This document shows, piece by piece, positions 4,848 to 57,708 of a DNA stretch of 64,000 bases. Positions within the stretch are counted from its first letter, which is position 1; the number at the start of each line of letters is the position of its first letter. The stretch comes from Sulfurimonas sp. CG01_land_8_20_14_3_00_36_23. Lineage in GTDB: Bacteria; Campylobacterota; Campylobacteria; Campylobacterales; Sulfurimonadaceae. The notes below the pieces were generated by a model, which worked only from the letters and a program-made list of their open reading frames with translations, did no database searches and was not told where the DNA came from. The stretch is from NCBI GenBank assembly GCA_002781365.1, contig PETN01000010.1, positions 13,556-77,555 of the forward strand, written 5' to 3'. Position numbers and translations under genes: made by a program.

Positions 4848-4877
4848 TTGGCATGTGGAAATATTTCCACATGCCAA
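4848..4877. terminator. Perfect 30-bp palindrome made of two inverted copies of the 13-mer motif; likely bidirectional terminator
   Basis: TTGGCATGTGGAA-ATAT-TTCCACATGCCAA between convergent stops at 4819 (+) and 4906 (-). Confidence 0.75.
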
Positions 4878-28514: not shown

Positions 28515-28958
28515 TTGAGCTTACGAGAAACAATCAACAACGACGTAAAAGAGGCTATGAAGGCAAAAGAGACAAAAAAGAGAGATGCACTTCGTCTTTT
28601 AACAAGCGCTTTTAAACAGATAGAGGTCGATGAGAGAAAAGAGTTAAGTGATGAGGATGTCATCAAAATCATCCAAACGCAAGTCAAAAGACGCAATGAT
28701 GCGGCAACTCAATATAGAGATGCAGGTCGTGATGATTTATTACAAATAGAACTTGATGAGATTTCATTTTATGAAGTCTATCTCCCTGCGCAAATGAGTG
28801 ATGAGGAACTCAGCAGTGCGCTTAAAGAGATTATCGCAAAAGTCGGAGCGACAACTGCAAAAGACATGGGAAAAGTGATGGGTGCTGCGAGTAAAGAGTT
28901 AGCAGGAAAAGCAGATGGAAAAAGAATCAGTGAGTGTGTTAAGAGTTTGTTGGCATAA
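28515..28958 (+). CDS. GatB/YqeY domain protein
   Basis: KEAMKAKE..LR, DMGKVMG, KADGKRIS. Confidence 0.9.
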   Translation: MSLRETINNDVKEAMKAKETKKRDALRLLTSAFKQIEVDERKELSDEDVIKIIQTQVKRRNDAATQYRDAGRDDLLQIELDEISFYEVYLPAQMSDEELSSALKEIIAKVGATTAKDMGKVMGAASKELAGKADGKRISECVKSLLA

Positions 28959-28965
28959 TTTTAAT

Positions 28966-29000
28966 CTTGGCATGTGGAAGTATAACTTCCACATGCCAAA
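28966..29000. terminator. Inverted pair of the 13-mer motif; likely bidirectional terminator
   Basis: TTGGCATGTGGAAGT-ATA-ACTTCCACATGCCAA (28967-28999), 15-bp stem between convergent yqeY and trpC stops. Confidence 0.75.
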
Positions 29001-29004
29001 CTCC

Positions 29005-29790
29005 TTAACCAAACTTCAGTTTTTTAAGCGCCGCTTCTTCATCCTCTTCTCTCATCAAAGACTCTCCAACCAAGAAAGCATCGACACCCGCTTTACTTAA
29101 ATCTTCAAGTTGCCCATGTTCGTAGATACCACTCTCAGCTACAATGATTTTACCATTTGGTATCAATGGGATGAGTTCATACGAGAGGTTCATATTCATC
29201 TCAAAAGTTTGGAGGTTTCTGTGGTTGATGCCTATGATGTCACTTCCTGCGTAGATTGCTTTTACTAAGTCAGTTTTATCATGCACTTCTACCAAAGCTT
29301 CCATGCCTAAGTGTCTTGTGTAGGCAAGTAACTCTTTGAGTTCGCTCTTGCTGAGTGCCGCAGCTATAAGAAGGATAAAGTCTGCCCCATGAACGAGTGC
29401 TTCTAAAACTTGATACTTGGAGACGATGAAATCTTTTCTTAAAAGTGGGATACCCACATATCTTCTTATTTGACCCAGATAGTCTAGACTTCCTTGAAAA
29501 AAGTGAGGTTCTGTCAAGATAGAGATAGCACTCGCCCCTCCTCTCTCGTAACTCTGAGCAATAGCAATCGGGTCAAAATCTTCACGGATAACACCCTTAG
29601 AAGGAGAAGCTTTTTTCACCTCTGAGATGATTCTGTAAGGATCCTCTTGCGTCGCTTTTAAGTAGGGAATAACATCTCTTGGAACTCTTGCATTAAAAGC
29701 GAGAGAGCGACCAAGCCAATCGAGTGAAAACTCTTTTTCTCTCTTAACTAAATCCTCTTTTGTCTTTTTTATAATCTCATCTAAAATCAT
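29005..29790 (-). CDS. trpC: Indole-3-glycerol phosphate synthase
   Basis: [38 protein letters not shown]. Confidence 0.95.
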
Positions 29791-31115: not shown

Positions 31116-31488
31116 CTTGAATCCCTGGACACTCTAACTTTAGTTCATCCACTCTTGTTTTAAAATAATCCCAAAACGGGAAGGTCTTACATTGCAGAGG
31201 TCTTGCATCATAGATGGAGCAGCCATTAGTCGCTCTACTGTAAAATGCGCACTCATAAGAGTCGCTATATTTCACTTCTTTTATGGAGTACTTGTACCCA
31301 TTTTTGAAAAGATATTTTGCCATAAAGTCACTAACTTCTAAATTTAAGAGTTTAGATATTTTCTCTATCTCCTCTTGTGTAACATAAATATACCCACTCT
31401 CTCCAGTACAGCACTTTCCTTGGCATGTGGAACAGGCAGATGGATTGAACGAGTAACTAAAACCCTCTTCTCTCATCAAATCAGACAT
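31108..31488 (-). CDS. YkgJ/FliB-like zinc/iron cysteine-cluster protein
   Basis: CSTCQGKCC, CAFY..GCSIYDARPLQCKTFPFW. Confidence 0.85.
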   Translation of the reverse strand: MSDLMREEGFSYSFNPSACSTCQGKCCTGESGYIYVTQEEIEKISKLLNLEVSDFMAKYLFKNGYKYSIKEVKYSDSYECAFYSRATNGCSIYDARPLQCKTFPFWDYFKTRVDELKLECPGIQDD

Positions 31489-32236: not shown

Positions 32237-32953
32237 ATGATAATTATTCCCGCGAGATTGGCATCAACGAGGTTTCCACAAAAAGTATTAGCTGATATTG
32301 GCGGCTTGCCGATGGTCGTTAGAACTGCAAAAAGAGTAGCACATTTAGATAGAGTTGTTGTTGCGGCAGATGATGAGCTTATCATTTCCACATGCCAAGC
32401 TCATGGCATTGAAGCTATGCTCACATCGACAACACATAAGAGCGGAACAGATAGAATCCATGAGTGCGCTACTATTTTGGAACTCGATGAGGATGAAATC
32501 ATCATTAATGTACAAGCGGATGAACCTTTTATAGAGCCTGATGTTGTACAAGTACTGATGTCAAAACTTCAAACACTTCAAAAAAAGGGCGAACCTTTTA
32601 TAATGGGAAGTTGCTACAATGCCATCAATGCAGAGTCTGCACAAGACCCTAATCTCGTAAAGGTTGTTCTCGATGATGAAGAGAATGCGATTTACTTTTC
32701 TCGCTCTTGCATACCCTACAACCGTAGTGGAAGAGCCTCTTACTTTGGGCATATCGGGATTTATGGATTTAGTAAAAGAAGTTTAAAAGAGTTTTGTAAT
32801 TTAGCGGATGCACCCATAGAAGATATAGAAGGCTTAGAACAACTCCGTGCAATCTATCATCAAAAGAAAATCACAATGTTAAAAGTATCTAGTACAGGAT
32901 TTGGTATTGATACGCCTGAAGATTTAAAAAGAGCTATAGAGATTTTTCTTTAG
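32237..32953 (+). CDS. kdsB: 3-deoxy-manno-octulosonate cytidylyltransferase
   Basis: IIPARLASTRFPQK, SGTDRI, NVQADEP, LEQLRA. Confidence 0.95.
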   Translation: MIIIPARLASTRFPQKVLADIGGLPMVVRTAKRVAHLDRVVVAADDELIISTCQAHGIEAMLTSTTHKSGTDRIHECATILELDEDEIIINVQADEPFIEPDVVQVLMSKLQTLQKKGEPFIMGSCYNAINAESAQDPNLVKVVLDDEENAIYFSRSCIPYNRSGRASYFGHIGIYGFSKRSLKEFCNLADAPIEDIEGLEQLRAIYHQKKITMLKVSSTGFGIDTPEDLKRAIEIFL

Positions 32954-42262: not shown

Positions 42263-42302
42263 TTTGGCATGTGGAAATGTATTAGCATGTGGAAATGTAT
42301 TA
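42263..42302. repeat. 18-bp tandem duplication holding two motif copies
   Basis: GCATGTGGAAATGTATTA at 42267-42284 and 42285-42302, between convergent stops. Confidence 0.9.
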
Positions 42303-57633: not shown

Positions 57634-57708
57634 GCTCGATTAACTCAGCGGTAGAGTGCCTCCATGACATGGAGGTGGTCACTAGTTCGAATCTAGTATC
57701 GAGCACCA
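57634..57708 (+). tRNA. tRNA-Val (GAC)
   Basis: Acceptor GCTCGAT/ATCGAGC, D-stem ACTC/GAGT, anticodon stem CCTCC/GGAGG with loop ATGACAT, T-arm ACTAG-TTCGAAT-CTAGT, encoded ACCA; promoter TAAAAT at 57591. Confidence 0.93.

Follow-up and report, generated by a model that had tools for sequence, protein, structure and literature searches.

The convergent genes yqeY and trpC of this Sulfurimonas genome are separated by a gap of 46 nt that is occupied by a perfect hairpin, and the questions raised by this locus are how the hairpin arose and what it may do between two gene ends. We addressed them in the window, which is the whole 64-kb stretch of DNA analysed, in the entire genome (2.43 Mb in 102 contigs, 35.9% G+C) and in related species of the genus.

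The hairpin between yqeY and trpC

The yqeY-family gene (28515-28958, plus strand; Pfam YqeY PF09424, 7.9e-50) and trpC, which encodes indole-3-glycerol phosphate synthase (29005-29790, minus strand; Pfam IGPS PF00218, 5.9e-87), have their stop codons 8 and 5 nt, respectively, from an inverted repeat at 28967-28999 with the structure TTGGCATGTGGAAGT-ATA-ACTTCCACATGCCAA. The left arm (28967-28981, plus strand, TTGGCATGTGGAAGT) is a forward copy of a word found throughout the genome, the right arm (28985-28999, minus strand, ACTTCCACATGCCAA as read on the plus strand) is a reverse-complement copy of the same word, and the loop ATA (28982-28984) lies between them. A repeat search found the 15-bp arms to be 100% complementary around the 3-nt loop, and the sequence and the search both agree with the first-pass annotation, which had described this stem and loop in the convergent gap.

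The only other perfect close inverted repeat of 15 nt in the window was found at 4848-4877. It is a second inverted pair of the word with the same arm order, no spacer, inner bases of AAAT/ATTT and unrelated flanks; the orientation of the arms is thus shared by the two pairs while their inner bases and loops differ, as had been noted at first pass, and they have nothing in common except the word itself. With up to two mismatches, the 15-mer arm was found at 22 places in the window, where 0.22 would be expected, and none of 100 shuffles gave a count as high. The G/C after GGAA in both arms of the yqeY-trpC pair was a single case, where 0.3 such pairs were expected by chance.

As RNA, the hairpin had folding z-scores of -5.6 and -5.2, one for each strand. 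We nevertheless rejected a canonical intrinsic terminator: a stable stem-loop is present near both stop codons, but neither strand has a U-tract after the stem (the plus strand continues with ACTCCTTAAC and the minus strand with GATTAAAATT) and a consensus terminator scan made no call at this hairpin. The number of terminator-like sites in 20 kb was not above chance (16 against 11.6 +/- 3.7). No Rfam family matched the hairpin site; the sole Rfam match within the window was a tRNA gene at 57634-57705.

The genome-wide word

The most frequent 10-mer of the genome is GGCATGTGGA, which occurs 905 times (plus strand, 434; minus strand, 471), and the density of the word is about one copy per 2.5 kb. 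The sequence logo of its copies reads tTTGGCATGTGGAAaT and is flat past about 16 bp. The word is a lineage-specific sequence of 13-16 bp (tTTGGCATGTGGAAaT), and the hairpin consists of two inverted copies of it. The 5' flank takes the variant form ATCT in about one fifth of the copies, and the centre of the word contains the palindrome CATG. According to a crude ORF call, by which 90% of the genome is coding, 64% of the copies are located wholly within ORFs, in all six frames. The orientation of the copies was independent of local GC skew, with an odds ratio of 1.00, so the word is not a polar signal of the Chi or KOPS type. We also set aside an alternative word, CTTACATGTAAG, which had at most 25 sites per genome in this genus.

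Two coding copies in the window were compared with their orthologous loci. The copy at 31420-31434 (plus strand), which reads S-T-C-Q, was made by substitutions, with indels in none of the 71 orthologues. The copy at 32384-32398 (minus strand) is common to L059 and G180 and encodes C-Q here and C-K in most relatives, and none of its 65 orthologous loci had an indel. At both sites the word-poor relatives have the same codons in other bases, with a K-to-Q cost of the word at one of them. In a comparison with G180, where 22 kb could be aligned at about 77% DNA identity, five of seven word sites were common to the two genomes with 11-12 of 12 bases, and G180 carried extra word sites that are absent from this genome; this genome also has orthologous word sites in common with G180, L041 and L059. 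Substitution without indels, together with the common and the differing sites, indicates that copies originate in place, persist and undergo turnover, and origin from a mobile unit is thus not the general rule.

Direct tandem pairs of the word within 120 nt were also frequent, the genome having 33 on its plus and 38 on its minus strand (for example, 42264-42296 of the window). Many of them have a gap of 5-6 nt and hence a period of 17-18 nt, which suggests slippage duplication.

The two longest word-free stretches of this genome (G000) are each about 21 kb long. One of them (L113, G000:C10:3533-23532) contains SecA and rTCA-cycle genes and the other (L111, G000:C6:8962-28961) an MSHA-like type IV pilus cluster, and neither is obviously foreign. 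Foreign DNA was rejected as an explanation for such stretches since the longest encodes SecA and rTCA-cycle enzymes, that is, core genes, so the expectation that the word is absent from imported DNA gained no support.

Inverted pairs across the genome

In a census based on the 12-mer with at most one mismatch (973 copies in the genome), we obtained 91 close inverted pairs with gaps of 0-39 nt, of which 61 had the arm order of the yqeY-trpC pair and 30 the reverse order (P = 0.0015). In the commoner order, TTT precedes the stem and AAA follows it. The yqeY-trpC pair is one ordinary member of this set of about 90 pairs. By location, 29 pairs were found in convergent gaps, 39 in tandem gaps, 4 in divergent gaps and 9 within genes, and this distribution differed from the shares of intergenic DNA (chi-square P = 2e-10), divergent gaps being under-used. 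The pairs are located mostly 0-30 nt past a stop codon, at a median distance of 23 nt. While 44% of the intergenic copies had an inverted partner within 45 nt, only 4% of the coding copies did, and among the intergenic copies inverted partners outnumbered direct partners by 162 to 49 (P = 3e-15).

Across the pairs of the genome we found no conserved body outside the word, the logo being flat beyond it, and no target-site duplications were seen by eye in the flanks of the pair list. Pairing between the arms, extended inward or outward, showed no extra or compensatory complementarity genome-wide relative to pairings in which the arms had been shuffled (P = 0.82 and 0.67), and neither this analysis nor the outer arms at the yqeY-trpC junction gave any sign of selection on the stem outside its 8-9-bp core. 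An all-against-all comparison of the flanks of 61 pairs (1830 comparisons) yielded a mean of 11.8 matches out of 30, with few outliers, some of which were plain duplicates. Variable spacers, the occurrence of both orders and arms that are only as alike as the word predicts together indicate that a pair represents two independent draws of the word that were kept because they are inverted, which argues against a MITE or REP origin. We rejected such an origin for the set also on the grounds that most word copies are inside genes and that neither a conserved body nor target-site duplications were seen. The first-pass annotation had proposed that the hairpins were assembled independently from the motif and not copied as a mobile unit, and the varied spacers and arm orders of the genome-wide collection support this.

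The yqeY-trpC and rplQ junctions in related species

An inverted word pair with the same arm order was found at the yqeY-trpC junction of six other word-rich species (G180, G082, G062, G100 (= L041), G095 and L059). In the pairs of the word-rich species at this junction, the cores CATGTGG and TCCACATG are invariant, the outer arms, inner bases and loops vary, and decay of one outer arm, without compensation, was seen in several species. Independent assembly, as proposed at first pass, needs a qualification here, in that the pair did not form afresh in this genome: it is old and is present at the orthologous junction in six species. Hairpins of unrelated sequence occupy the junction in word-less relatives. 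Among the word-rich species, G169 has another kind of hairpin at this junction, and G063, which is sister to G062 and G100, comes from a lineage in which the word has decayed and has only 34 word copies, has a strong non-word hairpin. Of the yqeY-trpC gaps of 15-200 nt, 21 of 23 folded far better than their shuffles, among them 14 of the 16 without the word.

In the L003, L012, L021, L073, G181, G103 and G191 loci (L191, L193, L194), trpC and yqeY are split by a gene of about 2.2 kb, which, from motifs recognized by eye, looks like one for a GGDEF/EAL signalling protein.

Another word pair is located 9 nt past rplQ, at the end of the rpsD-rpoA-rplQ operon (L176:1755-1782; G000:C1:17254-17281). 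This genome and G169 have a word pair at this position where other relatives have GC-rich stem-loops. In G068, G180, G102, G082, G181 and G019, a TTTTTTGGGC-loop-GCCCAAAA hairpin is followed by one word copy, and other hairpins were found after rplQ in G062, G100 and G083. In the native, non-word hairpins T precedes the stem, A follows it and a trailing U-tract is missing, features that they have in common with the word pairs of the commoner order. Given that word pairs or unrelated hairpins occur in the same slot, the constant feature is a hairpin after the gene, and a word pair is one way to make it. To judge from these comparisons, the word pair is used as a gene-end hairpin where the word is maintained. 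One slot would thus hold unrelated hairpins in species without the word and word pairs in species with it, and words resembling uptake tags would be recruitable as structural gene-end elements. The gene-end hairpins of this group would also work, or are at least kept, without a canonical U-tract.

The pairs could alternatively lack any function in RNA or at gene ends, if word copies merely pile up in the least-constrained DNA and become inverted by chance. This would agree with the missing U-tract, with arms whose complementarity is only that predicted by the word, with outer arms that decay uncompensated in relatives and with the occurrence of direct tandem pairs. Chance inversion does not, however, account for the more than threefold excess of inverted over direct partners among intergenic copies, nor for pairs that shun divergent gaps and stay close to stop codons, and it leaves unexplained both the structured junctions of 14 of the 16 word-less relatives and the word pair that takes the place of GC-rich stem-loops after rplQ. 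We regard it as unlikely and retain the gene-end hairpin as the putative role of the pairs.

Distribution and decay of the word in the genus

We counted the exact 12-mer in 194 Sulfurimonas species and found at least 99 copies in 13 of them, 21-58 copies in 9 and at most 15 copies in the rest, with 0-1 copies per genome for a reversed control 12-mer. Four species (G181, G019, G103 and G191) with 45-54 exact copies form a well-supported subclade that is nested among G095, G068, G102 and G180. When up to two mismatches were allowed, the word was found about 757 times in that subclade, 1938 times in G180, about 200 times in two word-poor genomes and 67-96 times for the controls. Variant words, or 'dialects', were rejected as the cause of the intermediate counts, because a search of 100 kb from each of the genomes G019, G181 and G191 gave no dominant alternative. 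As an illustration, about 47 of 679 exact 12-mers would remain after an assumed neutral divergence of 20%. The four species look like a decaying cloud of copies left after maintenance stopped, and a decayed cloud of near-copies implies that the word needs active maintenance. From its distribution, this maintenance appears to have been lost more than once. A single origin of the word-rich state was also rejected, as a trpC tree and a two-protein tree (31 genomes) scatter the word-rich species, with deep forks that are poorly resolved.

An 11-mer, GCAGAAGATAC, occurred 19 times in 100 kb of one of these genomes (G181:C1:1-100000, L097-L101) and is probably derived from a repetitive coding region.

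A candidate uptake word

The genome encodes ComEC, DprA, three secretins, four T2SSE-family ATPases (PF00437) and ten pilin-like genes, and it has an MSHA-like type IV pilus cluster as well as a T2SS/Cts-like cluster. None of the ten pilin-like genes could be tied to the word as its receptor. A marker of the MSHA cluster was present in 170 of 194 genomes and hence does not single out the word-rich species. ComEC, secretins and pilins are still encoded in the decayed subclade, and a gross loss of the competence machinery therefore does not explain why the word was lost there. On both counts we rejected the presence of these genes as a correlate of the word.

To our knowledge, the only process that yields the whole pattern is biased DNA uptake combined with recombination, as for the DUS and USS. 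On balance we lean towards a candidate DNA-uptake word that would have been co-opted, in inverted pairs, as a bidirectional gene-end hairpin without a U-tract, both functions being putative. Point substitutions create word copies in place and some Sulfurimonas species maintain them actively, and sequence-biased DNA uptake with subsequent homologous recombination would write and preserve the word in the manner of DUS and USS. Intergenic copies are retained preferentially as inverted pairs just past stop codons, and the pair studied here would fill a bidirectional gene-end hairpin slot for the convergent yqeY and trpC transcripts, where it may act as a terminator or as a protector of 3' ends that does without a U-tract. 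If the word is an uptake tag, the hairpin also carries two such tags. The set of pairs appears from its sequence features to belong to an undescribed uptake-sequence-like system. In a bolder form, which we put forward only tentatively, tTTGGCATGTGGAAaT would be a true DNA-uptake signal in a subset of Sulfurimonas, the first known from Campylobacterota and from any group other than Neisseriaceae and Pasteurellaceae, with inverted pairs replacing gene-end hairpins without a U-tract and, in sublineages without uptake specificity, with the tag decaying near neutrally and the slots being refilled.

The word might instead be the site of an abundant DNA-binding protein, or serve another kind of genome maintenance that does not involve uptake, with the pairs as dimer sites. 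A word that is maintained, yet decays in lineages that keep their competence genes, would suit such a role, as would the palindrome at its centre and the fact that no receptor or uptake bias is known for it. On the other hand, a binding protein would have to be reconciled with about 900 sites, mostly within genes, in all frames and at a cost in amino acids, whereas the site sets of parS, matS and SlmA are far smaller. The replication-related polarity of Chi or KOPS is also missing, and spacers that range from 0 to 39 nt are a misfit for a fixed dimer geometry. We consider a binding site improbable and return to the candidate uptake word in comparing it with known systems.

For Neisseria and Haemophilus it is established that DUS and USS occur as inverted pairs at the ends of genes; the DUS of Neisseriaceae reportedly form inverted repeats at gene ends, and inverted pairs of the USS of Pasteurellaceae are said to act as terminators. 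The DUS of Neisseriaceae resemble the word in that they are 10-12 bp long, have a density of about one copy per 1-3 kb, are found on either strand in genic and intergenic DNA alike, often form inverted pairs right after genes when intergenic, and are lineage-specific. They differ in sequence (GGCATGTGGAA versus GCCGTCTGAA) and in phylum, which is Campylobacterota here, and in contrast to them the word is patchy within one genus, is in decay in one subclade and has no U-tract after the stem. The receptor of the Neisseria DUS is the minor pilin ComP, whereas no ComP-like receptor was identified in this genome. The USS of Pasteurellaceae are likewise about two thirds coding, show no strand polarity and form inverted pairs downstream of genes, but their AT-rich flank reportedly supplies a T-run after the stem, whereas in the commoner order here the stem is preceded by TTT and followed by AAA.

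REP/BIME elements of enterobacteria and MITEs are similar to the pairs in forming hairpins in short post-gene gaps, where they could protect mRNA 3' ends, and the loops or flanks shared by a minority of the pairs here are a further likeness. REP elements and MITEs are, however, strictly intergenic and have a conserved body, with target-site duplications in the case of MITEs, whereas here the word recurs alone and is mostly genic. HIP1 (GCGATCGC) of cyanobacteria is, like the word, a hyper-abundant short word of unproven function in genes and spacers, but it is an 8-bp palindrome, whereas the word is asymmetric, is about 13-16 bp long and forms a hairpin only when paired.

Our search of the literature turned up no paper on an uptake sequence in Sulfurimonas or Campylobacterota, and we know of sequence-specific DNA uptake from two bacterial families only. 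If the uptake reading is true, the word would be a third, independent case of an uptake signal, found in environmental sulfur oxidisers, and would widen the phenomenon, and the lineages of natural 'loss' (G181, G191, G019 and G103; e.g. L090-L106) could be used in a search for the receptor.

Possible copying between hairpins

The yqeY-trpC pair has a likeness to the pair after rplQ (G000:C1:17254) that extends beyond the word. Their left flanks are alike in 14 of 15 bases, ACTCCTT is common to their right flanks, and 52 nt can be matched at 86.5% identity, which ranks 9th among the 1830 flank comparisons. The left flank of the yqeY-trpC pair also differs from that of all relatives that were compared at this junction. 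Because the common flank includes the TAA stop and the frequent ATCT variant, it contains fewer independent bases than the count implies, and the loops of the two pairs differ. On this likeness, it is plausible that ectopic copying or conversion has taken place between these hairpins. Separately, about 10 long-loop pairs with gaps of 14-21 nt have a related loop, TTTAGGTTTTT, in either orientation, and match one another over 45-106 nt.

Derivation of the hairpin itself from the rplQ pair, as a small palindromic unit that is mobile or copy-pasted (like a MITE, a REP or a terminator cassette), would account for the common flanks, for a left flank foreign to the junction in other species and for the existence of the long-loop pairs, but it is quite unlikely given that the flank match is inflated, that the loops of the two pairs differ, that no target-site duplication was seen by eye, that the flanks of most pairs are unrelated, that an orthologous pair is already present at this junction in other species and that most word copies lie within genes and arose without indels. 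Independent assembly from the word, as claimed at first pass, is thus upheld for most pairs by their spacers, their arm orders and the lack of a common body, and is qualified by the sharing of flanks or loops in some. A longer shared body, named in that annotation as the mark of a MITE or REP, was found in the long-loop pairs and not in the yqeY-trpC pair. The long-loop pairs, which include those at G000:C30:5787, C30:7641, C30:22899, C96:165, C52:17789, C32:1520 and C32:2648 among others, could be a small copy-pasted hairpin family inside the larger set.
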